A program made the position numbers and the translations under genes. DNA of 64,000 nucleotides from Acidobacteriota bacterium (lineage in GTDB: Bacteria > Acidobacteriota > UBA890 > WLXD01): contig CAXWPL010000001.1 of NCBI GenBank assembly GCA_963666215.2, forward strand, positions 640,001-704,000, in the 5' to 3' direction. Below the pieces are notes generated by a model. The model was not told the DNA's origin. It did no database searches and saw nothing but the letters and a program-made list of their open reading frames with translations. Below are positions 8,515-48,265 of this stretch, in pieces (within the stretch, counting starts at the first letter, position 1; the number at the start of each line of letters is the position of its first letter).

Positions 8515-8996
8515 GGCTGCTCGGCGCATTCGGAATCGCGGCCTACGTGCTGACGCAAGCCGCAACTCCGCCCCAGGGTTGCGTGGTCGACGAGACCACC
8601 GGCTGCGCCCTCGGTGACCGCTTTTCTGTGCAGGTGTCCTGGAAAGACGGAGACCACGAGCGACCTCTGACCCTGGTCGATAGCGGCAAGCAGCCCGACG
8701 ACGAGCTCCGATTCAAGGATCCCGACGGGCGCAACGTCCGCGTCAGCATCACCAACGGCTGTGACGAAAACGGCTACTACTGGATCCACTACAGCAACTC
8801 GGCTCGAGTGCCGCTACTGTTCGTTGCCACCGACATCACCGCAGAACAGACGCGCGGCTTTCTCGACCCCCAGGCCGATGGCAGCCAACACAGAATCACC
8901 TTCCGCGACGCCTTCAACACGTGTGACTCGACGACAGGTGATTCTGCGTCGGTACCGCAACCACAACCACGTTTGAATGAGCGCATGAGCGATTGA
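8511..8996 (+). CDS. Secreted hypothetical protein with four Cys
   Basis: GTGA overlap with the upstream gene; hydrophobic N-terminus; CALGDRFSVQVSW and NGCDENGYYW. Confidence 0.6.
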   Translation: MRLLGAFGIAAYVLTQAATPPQGCVVDETTGCALGDRFSVQVSWKDGDHERPLTLVDSGKQPDDELRFKDPDGRNVRVSITNGCDENGYYWIHYSNSARVPLLFVATDITAEQTRGFLDPQADGSQHRITFRDAFNTCDSTTGDSASVPQPQPRLNERMSD

Positions 8997-11323: not shown

Positions 11324-11863
11324 ATGGCAGAGAGTCGCCTACTGAGACTATGGGCTGCGCTCATCGGGGTGGTGCTGTTCATCTTCCTGAGCTGGATGCT
11401 GTTTGCGCTGTTTCTCCACGCCTTCAGCATCATAGGTGACGGTGGGGTGGCATCTCTGTTCGCCGACGCGATTTTCCAGCACAAGCTCGGCGAGTTGCTG
11501 ATTGTCGCGACGCTGATCGGCGCGGTGTACGTGGGAGTGCTGCGGCCCCCGGCGCAAGGAGCGGCGTTCTTCAACATGATCCGCTGGCCACTGCGGGTCG
11601 GCGCCCTGCTCAACCTCGTTGCCTGGTTGCCGCTGCGCCAGGGAACACGTTGGGGCACGTGGTCGATGATTCTGGCGATCGTCGGCGTTGCGGCGCCCGT
11701 CGTGCTGGCTCGCGTGGCGGCTCGCGGGATCACATCGGTGGCCACCACCACGCCGGTCCCTCACGACACGCTAGCCGCGCCAGTGCCTCCCGTCGCGCCC
11801 GCCGTAGAGGCCGAGCAGCCCCCCGAGCCCGAAGCCGACACAGGCGACGGCCAGGACGCCTGA
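11324..11863 (+). CDS. Hypothetical membrane protein (about 4 TM, Pro/acidic tail)
   Basis: Hydrophobic segments; AAGGA RBS before ATG. Confidence 0.6.
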   Translation: MAESRLLRLWAALIGVVLFIFLSWMLFALFLHAFSIIGDGGVASLFADAIFQHKLGELLIVATLIGAVYVGVLRPPAQGAAFFNMIRWPLRVGALLNLVAWLPLRQGTRWGTWSMILAIVGVAAPVVLARVAARGITSVATTTPVPHDTLAAPVPPVAPAVEAEQPPEPEADTGDGQDA

Positions 11864-11917
11864 CTTCGGCGTTCAGAACTCGGTAGAACACACATGGCGC
11901 TCGGCTACACTCGCCGC

Positions 11918-12913
11918 ATGTTGCCCACCGAATCCACGATGTACCAGGCTCTGTTCGAGCGCGACAGCTCGTTCGATGGGGTCTTCTTCGCGGCGGTCAA
12001 GACGACGGGCATCTTCTGCCGCCCCACCTGTCCGGCCCGAAAGCCGTTGCGCTCCAATATCGAGTACTACGCGGCGCAGCGAGAGGCTCTGCTGGCCGGC
12101 TTCCGACCCTGCAAACGCTGCCGCCCGCTCCGAGCCCAACGGCGAGCCGCCGAGCTGGCTTCGCGACCTGCTCGACCGACTCGAGCAGGTCCCCACGCGG
12201 CGCTGGCGCGATCGCGATCTGAGAGAAGAAGGGCTCGATCCGGTGCGTGTTCGCCGCTGGTTCAACACGCACCACGGCATGACGTTCCAGGCCTACCAGC
12301 GAGCCCGGCGGCTCGGCGACACTCCCGGCCGCAGCCGCGATCGCTCGCTTGTCGTAATGACCCGGCTGCTGACGCCGCTAGGCCCGATGGTCGCGGGCGC
12401 CAGCGACGAGGGAGTGTGTCTGCTCGAGTTTGCAGAACGCCGCATGCTCGAGACCCAACTGCGGCGACTGCAGCGTCACCTGAGCTGCGTGATGGCGCCA
12501 GGCAGTAATGAGCACATCGAGCGTTTGGATCGGCAGCTGATCGCCTATTTCGACGGATCGTTACGCGAGTTCAGCGTCCCGACCGTGACCCCGGCACGGA
12601 CTTCCAGCGACAGGTCTGGACCGAGCTGAGCGAGATTCCGTACGGCGAAACACGCTCCTACGACAGCCTCGCCCGCGCCCTTGGCCGGCCCGGCGCCCAA
12701 CGTGCCGTGGGTCGCGCCAACGGCGACAACCGCCTGGCGATCCTGCTGCCCTGTCACCGTGTGGTCGCGGCCGACGGCAAGTTGCGCGGCTACGGGGGCG
12801 GCCTGTGGCGCAAACGTTTCCTGCTCGAACACGAGCGGGGCCAGCGCCTGCCCGACGCGCGGGCAGCGCGCCCAGGCGCGGCTCCCATCCAAGAGCAGCA
12901 GCGGACGGCGTAG
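11918..12913 (+). pseudogene. ada: Ada bifunctional regulator / O6-methylguanine methyltransferase, disrupted
   Basis: CRPTC...CKRC Zn site, AraC-like segment and PCHR active site are split over three ORF pieces; +1 shift near 12131, -1 shift in the C-run 12589-12592. Confidence 0.85.
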
Positions 12914-31266: not shown

Positions 31267-33093
31267 TCACGAGCCCTCCGGATCGAGGTCCAACAGCCGG
31301 CGGAGCGACCGTTCGTAGTGCAGAGCCAGACCTGCGTAGGCGGGGTGACCGATGAGACGCCTTTCTGTTTCCTGCATCACCTCCTCGAGACGTCGGAACC
31401 CCAAGTCATGAAAGGTCTGACGGCTCGCTGGAACTTCAACCGAGTAGGCCGCCCAGTGACGGATCCGCCGCTCGTCCATGTCGGCGGCGCGCTCGTGCAC
31501 TTCAGACAGCGCGTCGCCGGGCACGGCGATGAGGACGTCGGGCAGTGCCACGATCCACCATTCCGCCTCGCCGGCATCGGGCAGGCCCGGTTTGCCGCCG
31601 CCGCGAAATCGGAGGTAGCTCTGATCGGGCAGCCGGGTCGTCTCGAGGCCGATCCACACGTCCCGACCGTGTTCGGCCGCCGCCGCGAGCTCGCTCTCCG
31701 CCAGAGCCAGCACGCCGTTGCTGCCATCGACGGTGGTTCGATAGTCCATCACCGCGATCGAGTCGACGCGCTCCAGCACGGCGTCCACCAGCGTTGACGA
31801 TTCGATCCGGTCGCCGCGTGGTCGACGCAGCGGTACCGAATCGAACCAGAACGGCACCGCGACCTCGAGAAGGAGATCCGCTTCTTCGGTTCGCTCGCGC
31901 AAGGCGTCGAGTGTCCGCAGGAAGCTCACGACGGTCTCTTCGCGTTCGTCGCTCCACTGCGGCAAGAGGTAGGGCTCGATGTCGAGGTGTAAGCCGTCGA
32001 GGCGCTCCGCTCCAGTGACCGCGTTGTTGTACGCGGCGACCTCGCCCACCATCCGGAAAAGGTCGCCGTGGCCGCTCGGCAGGGCGTAATCGGGAGCGCC
32101 ATCGAGCGCCAGCACCTGCAGCCCCGTGGCCGAGAGAAGACCGACGGTTCGGGCCAGTGCCTGCTGCGTCTCGATCGCCTCCAGATCGCTCGGCACCTGC
32201 AGGAGAATCCGCGAGATCGCGACGGCCTTGGTCAGATCGATGAGATCGTCAACGCCCTCGGCTCCGGCGGCCAGAAGGTCGGAGGTGTGCCAGACTCAGA
32301 GGGAGTTGACCGGGGCTCGGTGTCGCCGCGCCGGGCGCACCGGCTCCGATCCGGAGCGACATAAATAGATGTCGTCGATGTCGACGTAGCCCGTCCCATG
32401 ACTGCTGAGTTGTAGACCCGCGAGTTGGCGACTGCGCACGCCATCGATTTCCATCGGCAGCGAAACAGTCTGCCAGTCCGCCGTAGCCGAGAGCATGAAC
32501 GACTCCGAGCGCCGTTGATGAGCATCAACGAAGCTGGCCTCGATGCTGCCTTCGATCTGGCCCCGAACGCGCAGCTGCAAACGTTCGAAGCGGCTGCCGT
32601 CCAGGTAGAAGACGGTTTCGTCGCTCGGCTCATCGTCGAACAGTGAGATCTCGAGCCGCGGCCGGTCGCTCGCATCGGCGTCGAAAGCGACGCGGAGCGC
32701 GCGGGCGTCGGCTGAGCCGACAAGCTCCGCACGGGCGCCGCCTGTTGCCTCGAGCCCCCCTCCGAGGCGATTGCTGGTGGCATTCTCGAACGGCGCAACC
32801 AGGAAACATCCATCGGTGGCTGGGGCCAGCGAGCCCTTCTCGTACTCACGCTCGTCCTGCTCGTTCGTTTGCAGGTCGCCGATGCCCAGAACCGCTCCCC
32901 GGTCACTCCACGTCACCCGCAGCTCACCACGATTCAGGTCATCGAGCGCTCGCCGACTATCTGCGCTGAGCTCGATCTCCAGAAGCTGGGGCTCGCCGAC
33001 TCCGTGCCCACTTCCAAGCGCCGCAAGCAGGCCGGCCACGACAAGAAGGACGACCCGTCGGCTTGCCGCTGCGTGGCTGCCGCTTCTAGACAT
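31267..33093 (-). pseudogene. Secreted CBM-like plus TIM-barrel protein with an in-frame TGA
   Basis: ORFs 32296-33093 and 31267-32196 share a frame; reads NSL*VWHT; ALDGAP, LHLDIEPY, VMDYRT, IGLET motifs. Confidence 0.65.
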
Positions 33094-33300
33094 TTGCTCC
33101 CCTGCTCTGCCGTCGCCGCACCGAGTGCCCGTTCGCAGCGTAGCCGCGCCGGACGTTGTGCACGAAGCCCAATTGTTCGGGCTTTGCCGGCAGCGTCGGC
33201 CGATGGGGGTGCCGTCAGTCGCCTTGTTCGTTCACGGTCGGGGCGTCAGCGTTGCCGTTCCGACGGTGTACGGAGCTGTGGCGATGGCTCATCTACTCGT

Positions 33301-33340
33301 CGGGTGGCCGCGGCGCTCTCGCAGAGTCGCCGGCCACCCG
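33301..33340 (-). terminator. GC-rich hairpin downstream of the NTF2 gene
   Basis: CGGGTGGCCG...CGGCCACCCG 10-bp stem; no clear U-tract. Confidence 0.35.
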
Positions 33341-33396
33341 CGCCAATCCGGTCGTCGCCCCTCAGGGCTGACTAGAAGCAGTCGCCTGCTCTGGGA

Positions 33397-34317
33397 TCAT
33401 TCGGCGCTAATGTGACCGTTGCCGACGAGGTAGTGGATCTTGTACTCGCCGTCGTCGCCCAGGGCGGCCAGCAACAGATAGCTGCCGATCTGGATGGCGC
33501 TGCCGCCGTCGATCGTCAAGTCGTTCTGGTACCAACCACCGCTGCCTACCCAGCCGTCTCCCAGATCCACCTCTTCCACAGGATGAATGGTGAGCTGCGG
33601 CGAGCCCATCGCAATGGACTCCTCCATCTCGGCGGTAATCGCCTCGCGCCCGTGAGCCAAGGGCGCATCAGCGAAGCCAGCCACAGCACCGTCGGCGAAG
33701 GTGTCGGCCACCATCGAGGCGTGCCCCATGTTGAAGTGCGTGGAGTAGTAGTCGGCCAGGCTCGACAGCATGCCGTCGGCCAGGTCAGGGGGCGGCGGGT
33801 CGTCGTTGTCCACGACCTCGCGGCTTTCGTCCGCAGCGTCGTAGTTGGTCACCAACGCGCTGATCTTCCACGCGCCGTCGGCTTTCTGATAGAAGCCCAT
33901 CCAGTGACCCGTGGTGCTCGTGGGATCGGCGCCCTCGGGGGCGGCGTCGATCTGGTAGTTGCCAACGGCGGCCGCGCCATCGCCCATGACCCGCACGTCC
34001 GTGGTCTCCACACTGACCGTTGGCGACGCCGCCGCGATGTCAGCCTCGAGCCTGGCGGCTATATCCTCCCTGCCGTTCCGGACGTCGCCGTTCGCGGCCA
34101 GAAGGACTGCCTCGTCGGTGTAGAAATCGGCCACCATCGAGCCGTGACCCATGTTGAAGTGCAAGACGTAGTCGTCGCCGAGCGCCCGGATGGCGGCCTC
34201 GTCATCCATCGACTCCGCGACGGGAGCTGCGTCGGGCGCTTCGGCCTCGGGCTCAGCGGATCCGCCGCAAGCGAACGTCAACACACCAACGAGCAACAAA
34301 CTGAGAATGCGCTTCAT
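33397..34317 (-). CDS. Lipoprotein with two tandem NTF2/DUF4440-like domains
   Basis: Lipobox-like LTFAC; repeated HFNMGHxSMVAD. Confidence 0.8.
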   Translation of the reverse strand: MKRILSLLLVGVLTFACGGSAEPEAEAPDAAPVAESMDDEAAIRALGDDYVLHFNMGHGSMVADFYTDEAVLLAANGDVRNGREDIAARLEADIAAASPTVSVETTDVRVMGDGAAAVGNYQIDAAPEGADPTSTTGHWMGFYQKADGAWKISALVTNYDAADESREVVDNDDPPPPDLADGMLSSLADYYSTHFNMGHASMVADTFADGAVAGFADAPLAHGREAITAEMEESIAMGSPQLTIHPVEEVDLGDGWVGSGGWYQNDLTIDGGSAIQIGSYLLLAALGDDGEYKIHYLVGNGHISAE

Positions 34318-34555
34318 GGTCATCTCCTGGAGTTTGAAGCGAGGAGATTGGAATCGCGGGCGCCACCGTACGTCGACCGTCCAAGGAGATCAACCCCGGC
34401 ACGCAGGGCTCGCCGATCAGAATCTCTGCGACTCAGAGCACAGATTACCTCGAATCTCGCCATAACACGATCAGCACAACGGAAGACGGACCCGCGCCGC
34501 GGAGCTCGAGGCGCTTCAACGACCGGACTTGACCGGCGTCCTGGATCCCCGCCGG

Positions 34556-36274
34556 CTAGATGCTCGTTCCCGCTTTGAGCTTGCCGCGGTCGACCTTGCC
34601 GAGATGAGTCCGTGGCAGGTCATCCAGGAAGGTGACATCGCGCGGGTACTTGTAGGGCTCCAGGCAGGTGCGGACGTGCTCCTGGAGCTCTTCAACGAGT
34701 TGTGAGCCGGGCTGATGTGGGCCCGCCTCTGCGCCGTCAGCGGCGTCCGCGTCGGAGAGGACAACGAACGCGTGCGGCTTGACGAGACCGTCGACCGAAG
34801 GATCCTCCACCCCAACAACCGCGACCTCCTTCACCGCCGGGTGCTCGAGCAAGCAGCTCTCCACCTCGCCGGGTGACAGCCACTTGCCCGACACCTTGAG
34901 CATGTCGTCGCCGCGGCCGCAGTAGGTGAACACACCGTCGGCATCGCGCTTGACCATGTCGCCGGAGACGTACCACTCGCCGCGGAACGCCTCCATCGTG
35001 CGGTCCATCCGTTGCCAGTAGCCGATGGCCCGTGAGTTACCCGCGACCCAAAGCCAGCCAATCTCGCCGTGCGGCAGCTCGGCGCCGTCGTCGTCGCAAA
35101 CCTTCACGCGAAAACCCGTAACGACCTTACCGAGCGTCCCCGGAACAACGTCGCCGGGCCGGTTGGTGATGAAGACATGCCACTGCTCGGCGGTACCGAG
35201 TCCGTCGAGAAGCTCGACACCGAAAGCCTCGTCCCAGCGACGATGCAGCTCAGCCGGAAGAGCCTCGCCGGCCGACGTGGAAAGCCGCAACGAGCTCAGG
35301 TCCTGCTCGGCAACCAGCTCGTGGGCGAGCATCTTGTTGATCATCGTCGGAACGTTGATCAGAATCGTTGGCCGGTGACGGGCAATCTTGCTGAACAGCA
35401 CTTCGGGCGTGCAGCGTTCCGGGAACAGCACGGCCGAGGCGCCTACCGCGAAGGGGAAAAGGAGATTCGACCCTGTGGCGTAGCCGAAGAACAGTTTCGG
35501 CACCGAGAGGGTGATGTCGTCCTCGCTGTAACCCAACGTTTGCTTGGCGTAGCGCTCGGTGGTGTTGACGAACGAGTTGTGGCTCTGTACCACCGCCTTG
35601 GGCTTCCCCGTGGTGCCGCCGGAGAACAGCCAGATCGCGGCGTCGTCGCGGTGAGTCGGGAAACACTCGAGCGCATCCGAGGACGTTGCCAGCTCTTCGT
35701 TGAAGTCGGGATCCCCCACAACGAGCAAGCGCCGAAGGAAGCGCGCGGACGACCGTGTTCGATCGCTGGACGCGACGAGTATGCCGTCCGAGGGCTTGCC
35801 CGCGGACGTGGCGAGCTCGCCCAACATGCCCGGGTCGCTGGCTCGCGCCACGCTGGCGATCGACGACACCTCGGCCTCGGGTGTTGCTGCGATACCCGCC
35901 GCCTGGCGGAACGTGGTCGCGGCATCAATGTGCACGACGGCGGCGCGCGCGCGCGTCAGCTCGAGAAAGTAGGCGACGTTTTCGTCATTGAGGTCAGGAT
36001 TGACCATCACCACAACGGCGCCGATCTTGAGCGTCCCGAAGAAGGCTGCGACAAACTCGGCTGAGTCGGGGAGTGCGATGACCACCCGCTGTTCCGCCTG
36101 AACACCGGCCTCGCGCAGCAGATTCCCGAATCGATTGGCTTGCGCCTGCACCTCCGCGTAGGTGGTGTTGCCCTCGTCGGTTCTGAGAGCCACACGGTCG
36201 CCGCGGCCCTCGTCCACGTGGGCATCGAGGAAGTGCGCAGCAAGGTTCAGACGCTCGGGGATCTCGACTGTCAT
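34556..36274 (-). CDS. Benzoate/2-aminobenzoate-CoA ligase family protein
   Basis: FSGGTTGKPK, KLFFGYA, SAGEALP, DGLGTAE, GRGDDMLKVSG. Confidence 0.88.
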   Translation of the reverse strand: MTVEIPERLNLAAHFLDAHVDEGRGDRVALRTDEGNTTYAEVQAQANRFGNLLREAGVQAEQRVVIALPDSAEFVAAFFGTLKIGAVVVMVNPDLNDENVAYFLELTRARAAVVHIDAATTFRQAAGIAATPEAEVSSIASVARASDPGMLGELATSAGKPSDGILVASSDRTRSSARFLRRLLVVGDPDFNEELATSSDALECFPTHRDDAAIWLFSGGTTGKPKAVVQSHNSFVNTTERYAKQTLGYSEDDITLSVPKLFFGYATGSNLLFPFAVGASAVLFPERCTPEVLFSKIARHRPTILINVPTMINKMLAHELVAEQDLSSLRLSTSAGEALPAELHRRWDEAFGVELLDGLGTAEQWHVFITNRPGDVVPGTLGKVVTGFRVKVCDDDGAELPHGEIGWLWVAGNSRAIGYWQRMDRTMEAFRGEWYVSGDMVKRDADGVFTYCGRGDDMLKVSGKWLSPGEVESCLLEHPAVKEVAVVGVEDPSVDGLVKPHAFVVLSDADAADGAEAGPHQPGSQLVEELQEHVRTCLEPYKYPRDVTFLDDLPRTHLGKVDRGKLKAGTSI

Positions 36275-36489
36275 ATGGCGGACATTACCGAACCCCTTCG
36301 CGCTGCGACAAGCCGGGTTGTGTCACGACGTCTGGACGCACTGGCGACTCGCGACCCTTTCGGCGCCGTTCCGGCGCTTGCGGCGCGCCGTCGGCACAGT
36401 GCTGTCGCCGTACCGGCGAACGCGGCATCCTTGTCGCGCTGATCGCGCCCTCCGAAACCGAACGAAGAGACACGCACGAGGACCGAGTC

Positions 36490-38676
36490 GTGAGATCGAA
36501 GATCCCGGTGGGCCTGGCGTTGCTGCTGGCGGCCGGTTGGGTGCAGTCGCCCCAACGGCCTACCTTTCGTGCCGACGCACCCCTGGTGCGCGTCGACGTC
36601 ATCGTTTCCGACAGCGGCGGCGACTTCATCGACGACTTTCGACTGTACGAAGACGGTCAGCTCCAACGCCTCCTTTCGCTACAGCTGGTCGACGTCGAGC
36701 GAGGCGAGGTGACGGTGCGATCGTCGTCCACGTTCGGAGCGACGGCGCTCGCGGCAGAGCCGGTCGAGCTGGTCGAAACCGACGTCGCCGCGCTCTCGGC
36801 AATCGTGTACCTCATCGACGGTCCGACGCTCGATCCTACGGTCAAGGGACGCTTCGCCGATATCTGGGCCCGCGTCTTGGTGGAGACCGAGGACGCCACC
36901 CTGACGTCGCCGCGCGCCGTCTACATGATCGACTCGATCGGCCAGTTGCGCGAGATCACACCGCTGACACGCAATACCGAGGCCCTCCGCGCGAGCGGCC
37001 AGACCATCGCCGATCTGCCGCTGTCGGGCACGTCGCGAATGCAGCGACTCATCGAGGTTGCCGAGACCGCGAGCCAGAACAACGCACCGGCCATCGGGGG
37101 TGGCGGCGGCGGCTTGATGGGAGACGACCCGGGTCTGCGCCTCGCACAGATGAAAGCGCGCGCCTTCGAGGCCGAGGAGAGCTCGCGCAGCTTCCATTCC
37201 TTCGAAACGCTCGAGCGCTTCGCGAACTCGCTCTCGGCGCGCGGCGGCCGTACGGCGCTGGTGTGGGTGTCGTCGGGCGTCAAGATCACCCAGGGCGGAC
37301 CCTTTTTATCGGTGGTCGCCGTGGCCGCCGATCCGGCGGGAACCGGCCGCGCGATCCAGCGGCTCGGCGGCATCGCCCCAGATCAAGGTCTGCTATCGGC
37401 TCTCGAGCGAGTCCAGAAGGCCGCCAACAGCGCCAACGTGAGCATCTACGCAATCGACCCCAGCCTCCTCAACCAACGCCGTGGCCTCGAGTCCGACGCC
37501 AGCACGCAGAACACTTTCGGCCCCGCAGGCAGCGCGCTGGCGTCGCCGCTCGTTCGTGGAGCATTCGACGGCCTGCGCGACAGCATGCGCAACGCCGCCT
37601 CTGCCACCGGCGGCAAGGCATTGATCTCCTACACCGACCTGCGCTCGGCGTTCCGTGATATCGAACGCGATACCGGGCGTTTCTACCTGCTGGCCTACAC
37701 GCCGCCAGCACCGCATGGCGACGGCGTCTATCACGAGATCGACGTCGAGGTGGAGTTCGACGGAGCCGAGGTTCGCCATCGCGCCGGGTATTCGGACCTG
37801 GCGCTCGCCGACCGCCTGCAGAACCAAATCAACGCCGCGCTCGCCCTTCCTGGCACTGCCGACGGCCTCGGCATCGAGATCGACGTCGTGCGCTCCTGGC
37901 GCCCCAACGGCGCGGCAAACGTCATGCTGGCGCTCGGCCTGCGGCCTTCGGAGGCCGATTTCGCTATTGAGGAGGGCAACAACGGCGCCACCGAGTTGCG
38001 CTCGTTCCAGGTCAATGCGCTCGTTCTCGACGAGGACGGTGAGGTGATCGAGACGACGCAGCAACGCCACGAGCTGCGACGGCCGCGAGCGCGCCAGCAA
38101 GATCGTGGCAATACCGACGAAGCGAACGCTGCCAGCTCAGATCCACAGGACTCGGCGGACGAGCCCTACCTGGTGTACCGCTACGAGTGGACACTACCGC
38201 CCGGCGACTACGACATCCGGGTTGCCGCGCTGGACGAGATCTGAGGGCGCATCGGGGCGGCGAGCATCGGGTTCGACGTACCCGTCTCCGACGACAGCTG
38301 GCGGGTAAGCGACCTGGCGTTGATCAGCGGCGCCAACGCGGCGTCGCTACAGCCGGTGGTGAACGATCGCGCACCGGCCGGCGTGCCCCTGATTGCGTAT
38401 GTCGAGTTGATCGGCGGAGTCCAGCCGATCCTCTCGGGACGTCTGATGTCGAAGGAACAGGTTGCGCTCGGCGGCGACCAAGAAGGCGCGGACCTGGGGG
38501 CGCGACTGCCCGCTACGCGGATGCGGCGCGACACCGAGGGAGTGTTCCGCGGCACGATGGCGCTGCCTCCGTACCTTCCGGCGGGCGAGTACCTGCTGCA
38601 GGTTCAAGTCACCGATCCAGTCGCCAACCGTCACCACATCTTCCGCCGCGAGCTCCAGCTCCTCGACCACCGCTAG
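36490..38676 (+). pseudogene. Acidobacterial-type VWA-domain protein with an in-frame TGA
   Basis: PTFRAD..LVRVDV, TALVWVSSG, ATGG, YLLAYTP; TGA at 38242-38244 (DEI*GRIG), then the same frame stays open to 38676. Confidence 0.7.
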
Positions 38677-38721
38677 TGAGAGCGTCGTGGCGGAGCTCGT
38701 GGCGGCCGTATAATCGCCGCC

Positions 38722-39540
38722 ATGCCGATCGAGCGACTTGCCGAGATGACGTGGGAAGAGGTGAGCGACCTCGATGGCGCGCGATCGGTGGCAATTCTGC
38801 CGTTGGGCGCCATCGAAGCTCACGGGCCGCACCTGCCGCTGAGCACCGACGTCGTGATTGGCGAGGCGATGGCTCGGAGCGGTGCCGAGAAGCTCGCCGA
38901 GGCCGGGCTGACGCCGATTCTGCTTCCCGCCCTGCCCTACACAACGGCGGGGTTCGCGGCGGCGTTCCCTGGAACGATTACGGTGGGATCGCGAGTCGTC
39001 TGCGACCTGATTGTGGAGATCGCGCGGAGCCTTGGCCGTGCCGACGTAGGCACGTTGGCACTGGCGAATGTTCATCTCGACCCGGTTCACCTGGGCGCCC
39101 TGCGCGGTGCCGTGTCGGAGATCCGCGCGGCGGAGCTGCTCAAGATCGTGTACCCCGACATCACGCGTAAGCCGTGGGCACTGCGCCTGAGCGACGAGTT
39201 CAAGAGCGGCGCCTGTCACGCGGGGTGTTACGAGGGCTCGGTGATGATGGCCGAGCGCCGCGAGCTCGTGCGCGAGGAAATCCAGGCGGTTCTGCCCGAC
39301 AATCCAGCCTCGCTCTCCGAAGCCATCGTTGCCGGCAAAACCTCGTTCAAGGCGGCGGGAGGACCGCAGGCGTATTTCGGCTATCCCGCCAACGCGACCG
39401 CCGAGGAGGGCGCCGCAACGGTGGAGATCCTCGGCGGCATCCTCAGCGAGGCGGTGCTGCAACGCCTCAGGCTATGGGAGCCCGACCTCGACTCAGGTTC
39501 CGTGCCCACGGATGTCGGCATGGCGAGGCCAGGCGCATGA
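38722..39540 (+). CDS. Creatininase-family amidohydrolase
   Basis: EMTWEE, PLGAIEAHGPHLPLSTD, HAGCYEGS, ATAEEG. Confidence 0.9.
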   Translation: MPIERLAEMTWEEVSDLDGARSVAILPLGAIEAHGPHLPLSTDVVIGEAMARSGAEKLAEAGLTPILLPALPYTTAGFAAAFPGTITVGSRVVCDLIVEIARSLGRADVGTLALANVHLDPVHLGALRGAVSEIRAAELLKIVYPDITRKPWALRLSDEFKSGACHAGCYEGSVMMAERRELVREEIQAVLPDNPASLSEAIVAGKTSFKAAGGPQAYFGYPANATAEEGAATVEILGGILSEAVLQRLRLWEPDLDSGSVPTDVGMARPGA

Positions 39541-40325
39541 ATACCCTACTGACGCTCGACGGGAAGACGGCGGTCGTCACGGGTGGCGGACGCGGCATCG
39601 GAGCCGCGATCGCCCGGGCGCTCGGAGCAGCCGGCGCGGCCGTCGTCGTAGCGGCGCGCAGCGAGAACGAGATCGACGGCGTGGCGACCGAGTTACGAGC
39701 GCTAGGAGTGCAAGCGTGGCCGGTGCCCGTAGATGTGACCGATCCCGACAGCGTCACCAAGCTGACGAGCGCCGCGATCGACCGCATGGGCCGGGTGGAC
39801 GTGCTGGTCAACAACGCCGGCGTCGTCAAGTCGGCTCCCCTCCACAGCCAGTCGCTGGAAGACTGGAACCGTGTCATCGCGGTGAACGCCACCGGAACGT
39901 TCCTGTGCACGCAGTCGATGGTCGCAGGCATGGTGGAAAGCGGCTGGGGCCGCGTCGTCAATATCGCCTCGGTCACCTCGAAAGTCGGCGCCCGATACAT
40001 CAGCGCCTATGCCGCCTCGAAGCACGCGGTGCTCGGGTTCACCCGCAGCATCGCGCTCGAGCTCGCCGACAAAGGTGTAACGGTCAACGCTATCTGTCCC
40101 GGCTATGTCGACACCGACATGACGACGGCTTCGCTGGCGCGAATCGAAAAGAAGACCGGCCAGGGCAGCGAACAAGCTCTCGCGATGATCCTCGCTGGCT
40201 CACCACAGGGCAGACTCATCGAACCCGACGAAATCGCACACTTGGTGCTCGCGCTCTGCGATCACAACGCCAGGGGCATCACCGGTCAGGCGATCGTCAT
40301 CGACGGCGGCGAGGTGCAAACATGA
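39537..40325 (+). CDS. SDR (3-hydroxyacyl-CoA dehydrogenase-like)
   Basis: TGGGRGIG, NNAG, YAASKH; ATGA overlap. Confidence 0.9.
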   Translation: MNTLLTLDGKTAVVTGGGRGIGAAIARALGAAGAAVVVAARSENEIDGVATELRALGVQAWPVPVDVTDPDSVTKLTSAAIDRMGRVDVLVNNAGVVKSAPLHSQSLEDWNRVIAVNATGTFLCTQSMVAGMVESGWGRVVNIASVTSKVGARYISAYAASKHAVLGFTRSIALELADKGVTVNAICPGYVDTDMTTASLARIEKKTGQGSEQALAMILAGSPQGRLIEPDEIAHLVLALCDHNARGITGQAIVIDGGEVQT

Positions 40326-40774
40326 GCTCGAGCTACCGCGTCATCAACCCCGAGGAGCTCGGTGCCCCGAGCGGTTGGAACAACGGCATGCTGGCGGCGC
40401 CTGGCGGCAGCGTGCTGTTCATCGCCGGGCAAACCGCACGGGGCGCCTCCGGACGCGTTGAACCGGTCGGCTTTGTCGAGCAGTTCGGCCGCGCCCTCGA
40501 CAACATCCTGGTGGTACTGCGCGATGCTGGAGGCACGCCGGTCGATGTCGGGAGGATGACGATCTACGTAACCGACCTCGACGCCTACCTCGACTCACTG
40601 CGCGAGCTCGGCGGCGTCTACCGCGAGCGCATGGGCCGACACTACCCGGCAATGGCACTCGTGGAGGTCTCGCGACTGGTCGACCCGGCGGCGCTGGTGG
40701 AGATCGAAGCCACGGCAGTGCTGCCAATGCCCGTCGACTTGACCGATCGTGGAGGTCACGCGCAGCTCGTCTGA
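40322..40774 (+). CDS. RidA/YjgF-family protein
   Basis: LFIAGQ, HYPAMALVEV, LVEIEATA. Confidence 0.9.
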   Translation: MSSSYRVINPEELGAPSGWNNGMLAAPGGSVLFIAGQTARGASGRVEPVGFVEQFGRALDNILVVLRDAGGTPVDVGRMTIYVTDLDAYLDSLRELGGVYRERMGRHYPAMALVEVSRLVDPAALVEIEATAVLPMPVDLTDRGGHAQLV

Positions 40775-40852
40775 CGAACGGCTGAACACCCCAACCCGTG
40801 CCAGGCGGTCGCACTCTCCTTCGAGAAAACCAAAGCGAGCCGAACCCACACC

Positions 40853-41653
40853 ATGCCAATCGAGCCGAAGAGCTTTCTGTGGAGCGCCGACCCCGAAACC
40901 GGCGTCGCCACACTGATTCTCAATCGACCCGAGCGGCTCAACGCGCTGACGTTCGAAGTCTACGGCGAGCTGCTCCACACATTCCTGGCGCTGCCCGAGG
41001 AAACCGACGTCCGAGCCGTGGTGATCACCGGCCAGGGCAAGGCGTTCTGCTCGGGTGGCGACGTGCGAGACATCATCGGGCCGCTCTTGGAGGCCGACTT
41101 CGACAGATTGCACGACTTCACTCGCATGACGTGCGATCTGATTGGCGCCATACGGAGATGTGGCAAGCCCGTGATCGCGGCGCTCAACGGCACGGTTGCC
41201 GGCGCGGGAGCAGTCATCGCCACCGCGTGCGACATCCGTATCGCGGCGACCTCGGCGCGTATCGCGTTCCTGTTCACCAAGGTCGGGCTATCCGGCGCAG
41301 ATATGGGCGTTGCCTGGCTGCTGCCGCGCCTCGTGGGACTGGGTCGCGCCACGGAGTTACTCATGACGGGCAGCTTCATCGACGCCGCCGAGGCTCACCG
41401 AATTGGTCTCTACAACCAGGTCGTCGACGACGGGCACGTGCTTGATGTTGCGCTGTCGCTGGCGGAGTCACTGGCCCGCGGCCCGGCGGGCGCGCTGGCT
41501 GTGACCAAGCGCCAGCTCGACGCAGAGGCCGACCAGAGCCTCGAGCAAGCTCTCGTCGACGAGGCCCGGGAGCAGGCAGTCTGCATGCTGAGCCCCGACT
41601 TTCGCGAGGCCTACCAGGCGTTTGTCGACAAGCGCGAGCCGCGCTTCGAGTGA
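40853..41653 (+). CDS. Enoyl-CoA hydratase-family protein
   Basis: [25 protein letters not shown]. Confidence 0.92.
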
Positions 41654-44109
41654 GTCGGCCACTGCGCATCGTTTGCGTGGGCGCAGGTCCCGCAGGGCTG
41701 TACTTCGCCTTGCTCATGAAAAAGGCGAACCCGGCCCATCAGGTCACCGTTCTCGAACGCAATCGACTCGAGGACACCTTCGGTTTCGGTGTGGTCTTCT
41801 CCGACGCCACGATGGGCAATCTCACCGACGCCGACCCGGAGAGCTGCGCCGCAATCCGCGAGGCCTTCTTCCATTGGGACGACATCAACATCCACTACCG
41901 CGGTCAGGTGCTTGCGTCCACGGGCCACGGGTTCGCTGGACTGTCGCGGGTGCGGCTGCTGACGATCCTCGCCGAGCGCGCTCTCGAGCTCGGGGTGGAA
42001 CTGAAGTTCGAGATTGAAATCGATCGACTCGACGGATCGCTGGACGATTCGGACGACAACGTCGGCGGCGAGCTGCTGCGAGCCGCCGACCTCATTGTTG
42101 GTGCCGACGGCGCCAACAGCACGGTGCGCGACCGACTCGCCGACACCTTCGAGCCGAGCATCGACTGGCGGCCCGACCGCTTCGTGTGGCTCGGTACGTC
42201 GTGCCCGTTCCCGGCCTTCACCTTCGACTTCCGCGACGACGAACACGGTCTCTGGCGGCTGCATGCCTACCAGTACGACGGCGAATTCTCGACCTTCATC
42301 GTCGAGACAACCGAAAAGGCCCTGCGGGCGGCGGGCCTTACCGACGACGACGAGGCGGCTACGATCGAGTACTGCGAGCGGCTGTTCGCCGAGCGTCTTG
42401 GCGGACACCGCCTGGTGGCAAATCGTTCGATCTGGCGTCGTTTCCCGACCATCAAGAACACCCGCTGGTCGTGCGGCAACGTCGTGCTGATGGGCGACGC
42501 CGCTCACACGGCACACTACTCGATCGGTTCGGGCACGAAGCTGGCGATGGAAGACGCGATCTCGCTGGCGGAGCACCTGCGCGACATCGAGCTGCCGGCG
42601 CCTCCGGCGGCCAGGGCCACGCCTCCCGAGCTCACCGCCGCTCTCGAAGCCTACACTCGCGAGCGCATACCACTCGTCGAGAGCCTTCAACGCGCGGCGC
42701 AGGCCAGCCTGCAATGGTTCGAGAGCACGCACCGCTACATGGGAACCGAACCGATCCAGTTTGGATTCAACCTGCTGACCCGCAGCTTGCGGATTACCCA
42801 CGAGGATCTGCGGCTACGCGACCCGGAGTATGTCGACAGGATCGACCACAGCTTCGCCGAGAGCGCCGCAGCCCAAAGTGGGGTCCCCGTTGGCGACATG
42901 GCGGCGTTGCCGTGGCGCCTGTCGCCGCGCATCACGCGACCCGAGCCCGAGCGTCGTGATTCGGAACCAGACTCCAGAAAGCGCTCGCAAGCGGCCAGCT
43001 CTTCTGAAGGCGGCCGTGCAGCAATCCCTCCGCCCATGTTCACACCTTTCCGACTGCGCGACATGCTGCTGGCGAATCGCGTCGTGGTGTCGGCAATGTG
43101 CCAGTACCTCGCCAACGACGGCACCCCCGATGATTGGCACTTCGTGCACCTCGGTTCGCGCGCCGTTGGCGGCGCCGGGCTGGTGATGACCGAAATGACC
43201 GACATCTCGCCGACGGCGCGCATCACACCCGGCTGCGCGGGGATGTACGCAGCCGAGCACGTCAACGCGTGGAAGCGCATCGTCGATTTCGCGCACAGCA
43301 ACAGCTACGCCAAGGTGGGCTTGCAGCTGGCGCACGCCGGTCGCAAAGGCTCGACGCGGCTCGTCTGGGAAGGCATCGATGAGCCGCTCGAACGAGGGGG
43401 CTGGCCGCTGCTGGCGGCATCAGCAATTCCGTGGTTTGAGCGTAGCCCCGTGCCCAAGGCGATGGAGCGCTCCGATATGGATGGTGTGCGAGACGACTTC
43501 GTGCGCGCTGCCGAAATGGCCGACGCGGCCGGCTTCGACCTCATCGAGTTGCACTTCGCGCACGGCTACCTGCTGTCGAGCTTCATTTCGCCACTGACGA
43601 ACCAACGCGACGACGAGTACGGCGGCTCCGTGGAGAACCGCATGCGATTCCCGCTCGAGATTCTCGACTCGGTGAGATCTTCCTGGCCAACCGGAAAGCC
43701 GATCTCGGTCCGCATCTCGGCAGTCGACTGGGCGCCCGACGGCCTGCGGCCGGAGGACGCGGTAGAAATCGGGCGGATGCTGAAGGAGCATGCGTGCGAC
43801 ATCGTCGACGTGTCCGCGGGACAGACGGTTCCGCACGCGAAACCGGTGTATGGACGCCAGTTCCAGACGCCGTTCGCCGACCGGATCCGCCACGAGGCGG
43901 GCATCGCGACCATGGCCGTGGGAAATATCTCTTCGTACATGGACGTCAACACCATTCTGGCGTCGGGACGGGCCGATCTTTGCGCCCTCGCCAGGGCTCA
44001 TCTTTGGGACCCGTACTGGATCCACAACGCAGCCCAAAAGCTAGGCTACTCGCTTCCCTGGCCCGATCCCTACTCGGTGCTCGACAACTACACGCCACGC
44101 TTCGAGTAG
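41650..44109 (+). CDS. abmA: Anthraniloyl-CoA monooxygenase/reductase (FAD monooxygenase plus OYE fusion)
   Basis: [37 protein letters not shown]; C-terminal OYE domain QLAHAGRK and HFAHGYLL. Confidence 0.9.
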
Positions 44110-44182
44110 CGTTACATTGCACGCGCGCGGACTCGCCGGCGCACTCGCCCACCCGCAGGGTCGAAACGATCAAGGAATAGAC

Positions 44183-44995
44183 ATGGGCCGGACGCGGACC
44201 TACTCCGAGTACTTGAAGCTCGACGAGTTGCTGTCTCTGCAGGTGCAGTCCGGCAAGCCTGACGAGCCGGATGACCCCGCCGCCCCCGAGCACGACGAGA
44301 TGCTGTTCATCGTCATCCACCAGGTGTACGAGCTGTGGTTCAAGGAGATCCTCCACGAGCTCGACTATCTGTCGCACTCGTTCCACGACAAGCGAACGCC
44401 CACGGCGCTGCACACGCTCAAGCGCGTCCTCACGATCCTCAAGACACTGGTGGGTCAAATCGACGTCCTCGAAACCATGACGCCGCTGCAGTTCACCAGC
44501 TTCCGAGACCGGCTCGCGTCAGCCTCGGGCTTCGAGTCGGCGCAGTTCCGCGAGCTCGAGTTCGTTCTCGGCCACAAGCGGCTGGAAGCGATCGAGCGGT
44601 TTCCTCGCGAGAGCCCGGCACGCGCGACACTCGAGCGCAGATACGGCGAGCCGAGCCTGTGGAACGCCTTCCTCAACTACCTCGCCAACCACGGCTACGA
44701 GCTTCCCGCCGAGGTCCTGGCGCGCGACGTCACCGAGCCGACGGCAGAATCGGCAGCGGTGCAAGCCGTGCTGATTGACGTATATCGCAACAACTCGACG
44801 CTGGCGCAGGTTTGCGAGCGGCTCGTCGACATGGACGAGGGTATTCAAGAGTGGCGCTACCGCCACATCAAGATGGTGCAGCGGACGATTGGCACCAAGC
44901 ACGGAACCGGCGGCAGCTCGGGGGCGGCCTACCTGCAAACCACGCTGTTCAAAGCGCTCTTCCCCGACCTGTGGGCAATTCGGGCGGAACTCTAG
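44183..44995 (+). CDS. kynA: Tryptophan 2,3-dioxygenase
   Basis: YSEYLKLDELL, HDEMLFIVIHQVYELWFK, SASGFESAQFR, GTGGSSG. Confidence 0.95.
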   Translation: MGRTRTYSEYLKLDELLSLQVQSGKPDEPDDPAAPEHDEMLFIVIHQVYELWFKEILHELDYLSHSFHDKRTPTALHTLKRVLTILKTLVGQIDVLETMTPLQFTSFRDRLASASGFESAQFRELEFVLGHKRLEAIERFPRESPARATLERRYGEPSLWNAFLNYLANHGYELPAEVLARDVTEPTAESAAVQAVLIDVYRNNSTLAQVCERLVDMDEGIQEWRYRHIKMVQRTIGTKHGTGGSSGAAYLQTTLFKALFPDLWAIRAEL

Positions 44996-45038
44996 CGTTG
45001 CCGCCCGTGCGGCGACGGCGCGGCAGCGAGCCGATCGA

Positions 45039-46286
45039 TTGAGCAGCGACCTTTGTGATTCGCGCCGCGTCAGCGCCAGCGAATTGTATCGCGCTCCCAA
45101 CCGTCTGGCGCGCTACTACCAGGGTTTTCGCGTTGCTCAACGCTTGTTGCTGACCGGCCATTCGCACCAGGCGTGGCCAGATGTCGCTCGCGACGCCCAT
45201 CTGCAAGCCTGGGACGACGCCGCCGAGTCGGTCGACAACAAATGGTCGCGCGCCTTCGAGATGGCCGATGCTGTTCGCGCTGGTTACGCCCGCCTGCTCG
45301 ACGACGATCGCGGCAAGACCAATGGCGTCGGCGACATCGCTCTCGGGGCCAACACCCATGAGCTCGTCGTGCGGCTGCTTTCGGCACTACCTCTTCTGGA
45401 TCGTCCCCGCATCGTCACGACCGACGGCGAGTTCCACACACTCCGACGACAGCTGGCCCGCCTCGAAGAAGAGGGGATCGAGGTGGTGCGAGTCGCGGCG
45501 CAGCCGGCGTCGGAAGTCGCGGCACGCTTGAGCGAAGCGGTGGACGACCGCACGTCGATCGTCATGGTCTCCTGCGTGCTGTTCGGCAACGCGCACATCG
45601 TTGAGGGCCTGGGCGAGGTGCAGCAAGCCTGCGAGCGCTCCGGCGCCGAGCTCCTCGTCGACGCCTACCACGCGCTGAACGCGATCCCGTTCTCACTGCG
45701 TGAGCACGGACTCGATCGGGCCTTCGTTGTCGGCGGTGGCTACAAGTACTGCCAGCTGGGCGAGGGCAATTGTTTCCTGCGGACGCCACCGGAGTGCCGA
45801 CTGCGCCCGATCATCACCGGCTGGTTCGCGGAATTCCCGGATCTGACGCGGAGCGCGAACGAGAACGTGGGCTACGCCGACGGTCCTGCGCGATTCGCGG
45901 GCGCCACGTACGACCCCACGAGCCACTATCGCGGCGCTGCCGTGTTCGACTTTTTCGAGCAGCTCGGGCTCGGGCCCGAGCTCCTGCGCGAGGTGAGTCA
46001 GCACCAGGTGGAGCTTCTGGCGAGCGGCTTCGACGACCTCGACCTGGACGCCGACTTGCTCACGCGCGATCGCAGTGTGGCGCTGGAAAAAGTCGGCGGA
46101 TTTCTCGCTCTCGAGTCGCCCATGGCCGGCGCTCTAGCGGCCCGGCTGCTGGAGCGCGGGGTACATTGCGACCATCGAGGCCATATCCTCCGACTCGGCC
46201 CCGCACCCTACCTGCGCGACCAGCAACTGACCCGCGCCATCGAGATCGTCGGCGAAGTGGTCAACGAAAGCAGTCCGCGGAGGTAA
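45039..46286 (+). CDS. kynU: Kynureninase (start uncertain)
   Basis: PLP fold type V motifs VDAYH, GGYKY, TGWFA; follows TDO. Confidence 0.82.
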   Translation: MSSDLCDSRRVSASELYRAPNRLARYYQGFRVAQRLLLTGHSHQAWPDVARDAHLQAWDDAAESVDNKWSRAFEMADAVRAGYARLLDDDRGKTNGVGDIALGANTHELVVRLLSALPLLDRPRIVTTDGEFHTLRRQLARLEEEGIEVVRVAAQPASEVAARLSEAVDDRTSIVMVSCVLFGNAHIVEGLGEVQQACERSGAELLVDAYHALNAIPFSLREHGLDRAFVVGGGYKYCQLGEGNCFLRTPPECRLRPIITGWFAEFPDLTRSANENVGYADGPARFAGATYDPTSHYRGAAVFDFFEQLGLGPELLREVSQHQVELLASGFDDLDLDADLLTRDRSVALEKVGGFLALESPMAGALAARLLERGVHCDHRGHILRLGPAPYLRDQQLTRAIEIVGEVVNESSPRR

Positions 46287-46334
46287 GAGTTTCAGCCGTG
46301 CGAGGTCCGGCAAACCGAGCACCAGGAGAACCGC

Positions 46335-48265
46335 GTGAACGACACCGCCCAGCCGGCTCAGCGACGCCGTCCGATTTGGCGCCGACCCTGGGTGTGGATT
46401 GTTGTGCTGGGGCTAGCGGCAGCGGCAGTGGCCGCCCCGTTCGTGGCCGAGTGGATGCTGCGACGGACGGTCGACGCGACCCTGCTACAAGACACGATCA
46501 ACGCGGCGCTGGCCGGCTCCACCGACGATCTCTACTACATCGAGGTTGGCGAGCTCGACTACACGATCGCCGACGGTGACGTACTGGCGCGCAACGTCCG
46601 CCTGCGGCCGCGAATCGACGCGATTCACGAGCGCCGAGCCGCCGGGACCCTTCCGGCGTTGCTCTTCGATGTTGTGGTCGACGAGGTCAGCTTCGTAGGC
46701 ATCGATCTGGCCATGCTGGCTCAGGAACGTGACCTCTACGCGATGCGGGTGTCGCTGCAGCGGCCGCGGGTGCGAATCATCAACGCGATCGACCTGGCAC
46801 GGCAGGCCGCCGAAGACGCCGCCGCAAGGAATTCAGACGCGGGGCAGGTGTTGCCGCAACTGGGTCTGGGCCAGCGCGAGGGGGAACACGGCAACGAGAC
46901 GTTGCTGGAACACCTCGTGGAGGGCCTCCCGGTAATCGACATCCGCGAGGTGCGAATCGACAACGCCGACATCACCAGCGAGCAGCTCACCGAGGCAGCG
47001 CTACTGGCGGCTGCAAGCAGCAGCGCCAGCGTCACCGAAGGCACCCTCGATCTCGAAACCGTCAACAGCTCCGAGAATATACCCGGCGGCGGAACGGGCG
47101 ACCTCGCAGGCGGGGCGTTGATCGACCCCATCGAGCTGCTCCTTGCGGAGGCGCCGGCGACCGAGAGCATCGAGAACATCTCGATCTCCCTCGAGGACCT
47201 GCGGATCGACACCGCCTCGGCCCGCGATCCCGACAAGATTCTGTTCAGCGACAATGTGCGCGTGGAAATCGGCCGCTACACGCGGACCAACGCCGACGGA
47301 CTCTACCGACTCGAGACGGGACCGGTGGTGCTGTCGACGGGCGACAGCTCGATTCAGATCGATTCGGTAGCCTTCGCCCCAACCGTGTCCGACGCCGAGC
47401 TGGCGCGCCGTCGAGGTCGCCGCGCCGATCGGATCCGTTTCAGCTTCAACCGCATCGTGGCCACCAACGTCGATTACCCGCGGCTTCTGGAGCGCCTCGA
47501 GACGTCGGTCGGCAAGGTGGAGCTCACGGGATGGGAAATCGACGTCTTCAGCGACAAGCGTCTAGCGGCCGCGCGACGGGTGCGTCCGCCCTGGATGCCG
47601 CAGGACATCGCGGCCGACGGCAGCCCATCGCTGAGAATCGACGAGATCGAGCTGCGCGACGGCAAGGTAACCTACTCCGAAGTGGCAACCGACGGGGCGC
47701 GGCCCGGGTCGATCACCTTTGAGGACATCCACGGCAGCATCGTCAACGTCACCAACGACCCCGAGCGCATGAGCGATTCGAGCCCGGCGGTCGTCGATAT
47801 CGAGGCCAGGTTCGGCGGCTCCGGCGACGTCAGCCTGGAGATGAGGCTGCCGCTGCTCGCCAGCCCGGCCACAATGAGCTACCGCGGCAGCGTCACCAAT
47901 CTCGACGCCAGCGCGCTCAACTCGATTCTTCCGAATCTGCTCGGCCTGCGATTCACTCGCGGTCGAGTTGATTCCATCGCCTTCAACATCGATGTTGCCC
48001 GCGGCCGCGCGACGGGGTCGTGCAAGGCATCTACCGTGACCTGAGCGTGCAAATCATCGACAAGGCTACGCACGAGCGCAGCCTCGGGGATCGCCTCAAG
48101 TCGTTTGCCGCCAACCGTCTGTTGCTGCGCACCACCAACGTCCCGCGCGACGGCAAGGCGCCGACGGTTGGCCGGGTTGACCACCGCTTCGACCGCAACG
48201 CCGCGTTCTTCTCGATTTTCTGGGGCGGGCTGCGCTCAGGCCTTCTCTCGTTGCTCAGGCGCTAG
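46335..48265 (+). CDS. AsmA/DUF748-like membrane-anchored protein, frameshifted near 48015
   Basis: N-terminal TM and beta-rich repeats; C-terminus continues in the -1 frame (VQGIYRDL...FFSIFWGGLRSGL); one extra G in the G4 run would restore the frame. Confidence 0.65.

Follow-up and report, generated by a model that had tools for sequence, protein, structure and literature searches.

To our knowledge, the kynurenine formamidase reaction is the step of bacterial tryptophan catabolism that is most often missing from genome reconstructions. The enzymes of this step are of the alpha/beta-hydrolase type or of the cyclase type, the latter being KynB (PF04199, TIGR03035), a metal-dependent hydrolase which reportedly contains a binuclear zinc site. 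Archaeal ArfB is a member of another superfamily, that of the creatininases. In this family, the hydrolysis of a formamide on an aromatic amine is a proven activity, because S. meliloti SMc02977 (BrbF), annotated as a creatinine amidohydrolase, releases formate from a formylamino-pyrimidine nucleotide (PMC9478397). The abm pathway of Azoarcus evansii and Arthrobacter sp. Rue61a comprises a ligase, an AbmA-type monooxygenase/reductase and beta-oxidation-like genes (PMC4539516, PMC3534580). We analysed a stretch of 64,000 nucleotides from an Acidobacteriota bacterium (contig CAXWPL010000001.1, positions 640,001 to 704,000; hereafter the window), in which a gene cluster shares this abm core but differs from it by the fusion to it of kynA, kynU and a creatininase-family gene, here called Creat (Table 1). 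Based on sequence comparisons, Creat is probably the arylformamidase of this tryptophan-to-anthraniloyl-CoA cluster and would deformylate N-formylkynurenine. It is best regarded as replacing KynB without being its ortholog and, among creatininase-family proteins, as a new functional variant. No creatininase-family formamidase of the kynurenine pathway is described, by title or abstract, among the literature matches listed, paywalled papers excluded. With the same exclusion, literature searches that paired creatininase with kynurenine, or creatinine amidohydrolase with anthranilate, returned clinical or unrelated papers only, and a search for MJ0116 returned none.

The preliminary description of the window had placed a creatininase-fold hydrolase at this position, and this is borne out: Creat matches the Pfam family Creatininase with an E-value of 1e-47 (163 bits, cut-off 31.3), its residues 7-243 aligning with profile positions 1-236 of 238 and thus with the whole domain. 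The AlphaFold model of Creat, which was built with 30 relatives, exhibits a pLDDT of 92.2 and a pTM of 0.88, and creatininase-family chains make up all of the best 15 entries listed by Foldseek for this model (E 4e-14 to 2e-12, TM 0.64-0.72). According to this model, Creat is a protein of the creatininase fold. The search of the Creat protein for PF04199 gave no match. Creat and KynB are alike in predicted reaction, in place in the pathway and in being metal-dependent hydrolases, whereas their folds and families are unrelated, Creat matching PF02633 only; should the predicted formamidase role hold, Creat would be an analogue, and not a member, of the KynB cyclase family.

Among characterized members of the family, the creatinine amidohydrolase of P. 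putida (1q3k, 1j2t, 3a6j) shares with Creat the fold (Foldseek TM 0.72) and equivalent ligands, but the two are 20-23% identical and no creatine or sarcosine genes are found near Creat. MftE likewise belongs to this fold family and hydrolyses amide bonds, but no mycofactocin genes are found near Creat. BrbF and ArfB are likened to Creat by reaction, the bond type being the same, and not by sequence; they act on a nucleotide substrate in riboflavin biosynthesis, whereas the context of Creat is tryptophan and anthranilate catabolism. It is very improbable that Creat is a housekeeping enzyme of this kind (a BrbF-type riboflavin formamidase, a creatininase or an MftE-like peptidase) which happens to adjoin the cluster. 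The best NCBIfam matches of Creat are indeed MftE (TIGR03964, 112 bits), the highest-scoring curated subfamily model, and creatinine amidohydrolase (TIGR04448, 71.5 bits), and "creatinine amidohydrolase" is the automatic name of these proteins in public records. However, these two models and that of the 3-dehydro-scyllo-inosose hydrolase IolN (NF041098, 32.3 bits, residues 7-102 only) all remain below their equivalog cut-offs of 172, 235 and 245 bits, respectively, and the neighbours scanned include no gene related to mycofactocin, creatine or riboflavin. In addition, the genome contains a second creatininase-family gene elsewhere (C1:450274-450870), and the pathway synteny is kept across 62 Creat loci from at least four phylum-level labels. 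These 62 loci, the window counted, comprise 44 loci from a scan of one genome per species, with proteins of 46-63% identity, and 18 further ones, after one outlier of 34% identity was dropped.

The catalytic site of Creat appears intact by alignment. In the HMMER alignment to P. putida creatininase (1q3k), residues E32, H34, D43, H118, D120, H166 and E171 of Creat pair with E34, H36, D45, H120, E122, H178 and E183, which we take to be the metal ligands and the catalytic histidine of creatininase; the ligand set of a binuclear metal site and the catalytic histidine are thus predicted to be present. Among the 62 orthologs, conservation reaches at least 95% at E32, H34, D43, H118, H166 and E171, and position 120 is D or E. 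Further residues, namely W152, R155, C165, F209 and Y218-F219-G220, are invariant within the subfamily. The preliminary description had pointed to an NVHLDP motif replacing the usual NGHGGN. The motif is real, as the translation contains LANVHLDP (N116, V117, H118, L119, D120, P121), and its consensus among the orthologs is N-[SAV]-H-[LF]-[DE]-P. Its reading as a replacement stands only by half, since the histidine is kept and D120 aligns with the metal ligand E122 of the P. putida enzyme, whose own motif is NGHYEN. The His-x-Asp of Creat would therefore resemble the His-Tyr-Glu of creatininase and would not reflect a loss of function. If Creat works as creatininase does, the formyl carbonyl would be attacked by a hydroxide bridging the metals, and H166, the counterpart of His178, would act as general acid/base.

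The formamidase reading arises because KynA and KynU are present, no formamidase is found in the cluster and an orphan hydrolase is at hand. The presence of both genes had been claimed from the start, and this holds for kynA, which is well recognized by PF03301; kynU is present but very divergent. No match to TIGR01814 was found for this kynureninase-like gene and its KYNU_C score remains below the cut-off of 27 bits, but its best solved relative is the P. fluorescens kynureninase 1qz9 (E 1e-11, vs about 4e-4 for cysteine desulfurases), and in related clusters the gene always adjoins kynA. As had also been stated, the cluster contains neither a cyclase-type kynB nor an alpha/beta-hydrolase: no such domain was found among the 20 open reading frames (ORFs) scanned in 32296-48044. 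Elsewhere in the genome (4.65 Mb, 91.7% complete), the sole PF04199 cyclase (C3:404545-405060) was considered as a hidden kynB and rejected on account of its lipoprotein-type N-terminus, its unrelated neighbours, which are MscS, cupin and asparaginase genes, and its score of 80.7 bits, far short of the 223 bits required by TIGR03035.

In the proposed pathway, KynA would open the indole ring to yield N-formylkynurenine, and Creat, as a binuclear-metal amidohydrolase, would hydrolyse the formanilide bond of this compound to yield kynurenine and formate. KynU would then release anthranilate, from which the divergent ligase would make anthraniloyl-CoA, and AbmA, RidA, SDR and ECH, together with an acyl-CoA dehydrogenase (ACAD) encoded elsewhere, would dearomatise, deaminate and degrade the ring. 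The order of the first steps may also be different, with KynU cleaving N-formylkynurenine first and Creat deformylating N-formylanthranilate just before CoA ligation, which would explain the frequent adjacency of Creat and the ligase.

The distribution of Creat and KynB supports the formamidase role that the preliminary description had inferred. Two samples were compared, comprising 251 genomes of the window's phylum and 161 genomes of Gemmatimonadota, the kynA counts covering the former and the 44 genomes of the scan. KynB was counted from 175 bits upwards with TIGR03035, a line chosen because the KynB genes that adjoin kynA or lie close to it have scores of 176.7-216 bits. Creat is found in 28 genomes of the window's phylum, a full-length or split AbmA in 24, kynA in 86 and a TIGR03035 match with E<=1e-25 in 93. 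None of the 28 Creat-containing genomes exhibits a KynB, compared with 34/223 of those devoid of Creat, and the same is true of the 70 genomes with a strong kynA (0/26 vs 16/44; at 130 bits or more, the counts for these 70 become 12/26 vs 32/44). Of the 24 AbmA-containing genomes, 21 have Creat, and none of these 21 has a KynB; of the three without Creat, G047 and G066 have a KynB (191 and 229.7 bits), whereas both are absent from G099. The picture is similar in Gemmatimonadota, where 45 genomes contain Creat, 59 AbmA and 26 KynB, with no overlap between Creat and KynB (0/45 vs 26/116). Among the 59 AbmA-containing genomes, 42 have Creat and no KynB, and 11 of the 17 devoid of Creat have KynB (Fisher p 4e-8, uncorrected for relatedness); the other six exhibit a cyclase of 156-163 bits (three), a cyclase of 102 bits (one) or none (two).

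Across both samples, KynB is thus present in 13 of the 20 AbmA-containing genomes without Creat, and it takes the equivalent position of Creat in homologous clusters. In G541 (Gemmatimonadota), AbmA-SDR-ECH-ACAD-ligase-RidA adjoins KynB-KynA, and in G047 and G066 KynB-KynU is found beside ECH and SDR homologs. This complementarity is the pattern expected if both enzymes do one job. The routine co-occurrence with kynB that would have spoken against this role was not found, as 0/44 genomes with this subfamily exceed the TIGR03035 cut-off. Neither was an association with abmA in genomes lacking kynA, since PF03301 is found in 42/44 genomes of the scan and in 26/28 Creat-containing genomes of the window's phylum; the exceptions (two in each set) are fragmented genomes or doubtful orthologs, including an outlier of 35% identity. 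The genomic signature of an EC 3.5.1.9 enzyme, namely co-occurrence with kynA and kynU and exclusion of KynB, is therefore observed, with a single exception, G008.

This exception is one of several observations that weigh against the formamidase role. G008, which is outside both samples, contains a Creat cluster together with a KynB (188 bits) beside a canonical kynureninase. The 175-bit line was set after the scores of the window's phylum had been seen; it was carried unchanged to Gemmatimonadota. The Fisher p-values overstate the exclusion, as related genomes do not count as independent observations. Creat tracks AbmA (21/24 genomes of the window's phylum) more closely than kynA (26/86), and in Gemmatimonadota the AbmA proteins score 1190-1350 bits in genomes without Creat vs about 1050-1175 bits in genomes with Creat. 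As the AbmA lineages differ and Creat follows AbmA more closely than kynA, the exclusivity of Creat and KynB may partly reflect the history of two cluster lineages. Moreover, a lower-scoring cyclase (115-163 bits) is present in 15/28 and 10/45 Creat-containing genomes of the two samples. In a maximum-likelihood tree of 41 cyclases, two clades are observed, one of which holds all the kynA-linked and high-scoring sequences; the second contains 12 of the 14 placed cyclases from Creat-containing genomes, plus those of family f29. In f29, this second-clade cyclase is the only cyclase, kynA is present and Creat is absent, so the second-clade cyclase could itself be a formamidase. Finally, both Creat and cyclase matches are absent from 11 of the 70 genomes with a strong kynA, which indicates that other formamidases exist.

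Several features of these cyclases and kynureninases deserve mention in their own right. The second cyclase clade (e.g. L109, L114, L119-L124; 135-165 bits) is well supported and widespread, and is never adjacent to kynA in the cases examined; in G174 and G113, it is surrounded by tannase, FG-GAP and PNP genes, none of which is linked to kynurenine. Family f29 (G078:C61, G108:C23, G181:C33, G245:C9, G275:C19) exhibits stand-alone genes with products of about 380 aa, which correspond to the N-terminal monooxygenase half of AbmA only (about 475 bits); kynA and a "type 2" kynureninase are found at a distance of 4-6 kb. This points to a different tryptophan/anthranilate route without the OYE reductase half. 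The "type 2" kynureninase (140-165 bits) is found beside kynA with Creat in family f33 and beside KynB in G047, G066, G168, G180, G224 and G254. A co-variation of kynureninase type with Creat, considered as support for the reordered pathway, was therefore absent and was dropped as evidence. The genome of the window contains a second kynureninase-like gene (G000:C5:77356-78765, 138 bits), 46% identical to the kynA-adjacent "type 2" enzyme of f33, with 2-hydroxyacid dehydrogenase and menaquinone (PF02621) genes as neighbours. At least three kynureninase-like types are thus present in these phyla.

The arrangement of the genes bears on where in the pathway Creat acts. The relatives carry the labels Acidobacteriota, Gemmatimonadota, Eisenbacteria, Vulcanimicrobiota, Planctomycetota and Sphingomonas. 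Their common arrangement is a ligase on the opposite strand followed by Creat-SDR-RidA-ECH-ACAD-AbmA-KynA-KynU, whereas the order in the window is Creat-SDR-RidA-ECH-AbmA-KynA-KynU, with the divergent aryl-CoA ligase beside Creat. As one arrangement dominates the 62 loci and these are not independent, neighbour counts (ligase upstream of Creat in 37, KynA adjacent in 8) are less informative than the split clusters. Variants of the order include Creat-KynA-KynU-SDR-RidA-ECH-ACAD-AbmA (G046), orders ending in ligase-Creat (G161, G218, G238) and Creat-SDR-RidA-x-ECH in six Planctomycetota loci, with the ligase ahead in four. In f33 (six genomes), the order is SDR-RidA-ECH-ACAD-x-KynU-KynA-Creat, with Creat at the far end from SDR-RidA. 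Sphingomonas exhibits three separate loci: CoAlig-Creat, AbmA-SDR-ECH-ACAD-RidA and KynA-KynU. Wherever the cluster is split, Creat thus accompanies upper-pathway genes, being found with kynA or the CoA ligase but never with the AbmA module, which favours the formamidase role. In G113 and G174, Creat-SDR-RidA is kept with KynA-KynU, and no AbmA was found in either. In addition, one alpha/beta hydrolase gene follows KynU in L005, and two tandem PhzF-family genes (L004 4668-6327) are found upstream of KynU-KynA / Creat-SDR-RidA-ECH in a relative without AbmA.

The preliminary description had offered, as an alternative, an action of Creat on an intermediate of the abm pathway. Creat would then belong to the lower pathway, which depends on CoA, and its substrate would be 2-amino-5-oxocyclohex-1-ene-1-carbonyl-CoA, the product of AbmA, or a compound derived from it. 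It would act either by hydrolytic deamination of the vinylogous amide or by hydrolytic opening of the cyclic beta-diketone that results. The close association of Creat with AbmA described above (21/24 and 42/59 genomes) agrees with this role, as does the gene downstream of Creat, which is most commonly the SDR (39/62 loci); in the window Creat, SDR and RidA are joined by ATGA overlaps, which suggest translational coupling. In Planctomycetota, CoAlig-Creat-SDR-RidA-ECH-ACAD is found without kynA or kynU nearby, a divergent kynA-kynU pair lying elsewhere. These arrangements also count against the formamidase role. As for the chemistry, cyclohexanedione-carboxyl-CoA has been observed in Arthrobacter, which implies a hydrolytic deamination step (PMC3534580), and ring hydrolysis is within the range of the family, as seen from the 3-dehydro-scyllo-inosose hydrolase model, weakly matched by Creat (32 bits).

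Nevertheless, this alternative is weakened by AbmA clusters that do without Creat, and we retain it as an unlikely rival of the formamidase role. Among 72,556 plasmid records, AbmA is found on 227 plasmids or megaplasmids and the Creat subfamily on none. A Ralstonia megaplasmid cluster comprises AbmA, SDR, MarR, ECH, ACAD, ligase, thioesterase and RidA without Creat, and R. solanacearum has kynA, kynB and kynU (PMC7608240). Creat is likewise absent from the cluster of G541 and from that of G099 (SDR-RidA-ECH-ACAD-AbmA), whose genome has no KynB and whose 20-kb locus contains no ligase. In G099 (L128, G099:C7), AbmA occurs as two pieces, a monooxygenase and a reductase (8728-10047 and 11412-12419), about 1.4 kb apart. 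Creat is apart from SDR-RidA-ECH-ACAD in Sphingomonas and f33, and the SDR sits with AbmA and not with Creat in Sphingomonas and Ralstonia. Since RidA is present in AbmA clusters without Creat, it belongs to the lower module and is the natural candidate for the hydrolytic deamination; a ring hydrolase is already offered by ECH. Lastly, a role in the lower pathway does not predict that KynB should be found in 13 of the 20 AbmA-containing genomes devoid of Creat.

The proximity of Creat to the ligase calls for another explanation to be weighed, namely that Creat is an amidase or lactamase which feeds the ligase with anthranilate from another precursor, such as N-acyl-anthranilates or an isatin-type lactam. 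A ligase-Creat two-gene unit, with Creat directly downstream, is found in three Sphingomonas species and two Planctomycetota, Creat stands alone in G049, G055, G094 and G265, and creatininase itself hydrolyses a five-ring lactam (PMC9478397). We nonetheless consider this function quite doubtful, as nearly all Creat-containing genomes possess kynA (42/44 and 26/28), which is adjacent to Creat in 8/62 loci, and as the exclusion between Creat and a kynA-linked KynB would be unexpected for an unrelated feeder enzyme. The ligase-Creat unit may have been transferred: in a sample of Sphingomonadaceae the Creat subfamily is present in 1/121 genomes, G031 itself, which makes this sample uninformative as a replicate, and an IS200-type transposase gene (L036 7670-8155) lies between a 4HBT thioesterase gene and the ligase-Creat pair of a Planctomycetota locus. 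Together, these two observations suggest horizontal spread of the unit.

The features of the cluster are listed in Table 1.

Table 1 Features of the tryptophan-to-anthraniloyl-CoA gene cluster of the window
Feature	Position	Strand	Size, family matches and overlaps
Aryl-CoA ligase, candidate anthranilate-CoA ligase, divergent	34556-36274	-	AMP-binding 266 bits; TIGR02262 benzoate-CoA ligase family 494.7 bits
Creat, creatininase-family metal hydrolase, candidate arylformamidase	38722-39540	+	272 aa; PF02633
SDR, lower pathway	39537-40325	+	adh_short 220 bits; ATGA overlap with Creat
RidA-family protein, candidate enamine/imine deaminase for the AbmA product	40322-40774	+	Ribonuc_L-PSP 56.6 bits; ATGA overlap with SDR
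Enoyl-CoA hydratase family ECH, PRK08258 type	40853-41653	+	ECH_1 181.5 bits; NF006107 365 bits (cut-off 330)
AbmA-type bifunctional aryl-CoA FAD monooxygenase/OYE reductase	41650-44109	+	FAD_binding_3 and Oxidored_FMN; NF006101 1096.7 bits (cut-off 1078)
KynA, tryptophan 2,3-dioxygenase	44183-44995	+	PF03301 222 bits; TIGR03036 282 bits (below the cut-off of 390.7)
KynU, divergent kynureninase-like pyridoxal phosphate enzyme	~45039-46286, start uncertain	+	KYNU_C 25.1 bits; Aminotran_5 22.6 bits

The ATG of Creat at 38722 is the first start codon after in-frame stops at 38674 and 38677. Creat had been called the first gene of the operon, and this is plausible: a same-strand ORF ends 45 bp upstream, and a perfect TATAAT (38709-38714) is located 7 nt before the ATG. 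As this leaves no space for a Shine-Dalgarno sequence, the position of the TATAAT suggests that the Creat transcript is leaderless and begins at the first codon. A promoter and terminator scan of 36000-46600 gave no promoter-like site and six terminator-like sites vs 5.0 expected, and does not inform on the operon limits; it is silent at this TATAAT because there is no matching -35 hexamer. The ORF of KynA is open from a TTG at 44117, the ATG listed in Table 1 being the likelier start.

In the genome of the window, a 2.4-kb insertion parts the ligase from Creat, where most relatives exhibit about 100 bp. This insertion contains a gene with a VWA domain (36490-38244, + strand), which matches the acidobacterial model TIGR03436 with 128 bits. 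Past its stop codon (38242-38244), a further coding-like ORF of 118 codons (38320-38676, + strand) continues in the same frame, and the stop may reflect a pseudogene, read-through or a sequence error. The cluster of the window is also devoid of ACAD, and ECH and AbmA overlap at 41650-41653. ACAD is found within 44/62 fetched loci, and the common arrangement places it between these two genes; its best homolog in the genome of the window is 52% identical and located on another contig (G000:C4:480332-481267).

Taken as a whole, the results lean slightly towards the view that the creatininase fold was co-opted to form a kynurenine formamidase class of its own, the third and independent of the alpha/beta-hydrolase and cyclase types. 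This class would be dedicated to a tryptophan-to-anthraniloyl-CoA supercluster which would be common among the uncultured Acidobacteriota, Gemmatimonadota and Planctomycetota of soils. Neither Creat nor a high-scoring KynB is found in 28 of the 70 strong-kynA genomes of the window's phylum. If the proposed function is correct, Creat would fill the formamidase gap in about a quarter of Gemmatimonadota (45/161) and about a tenth of the window's phylum (28/251). It would also correct the automatic name "creatinine amidohydrolase" of these proteins and make formanilide hydrolysis the second proven reaction type of a family with mostly unassigned members. Finally, it would define a complete gene set for the aerobic degradation of tryptophan via anthraniloyl-CoA.

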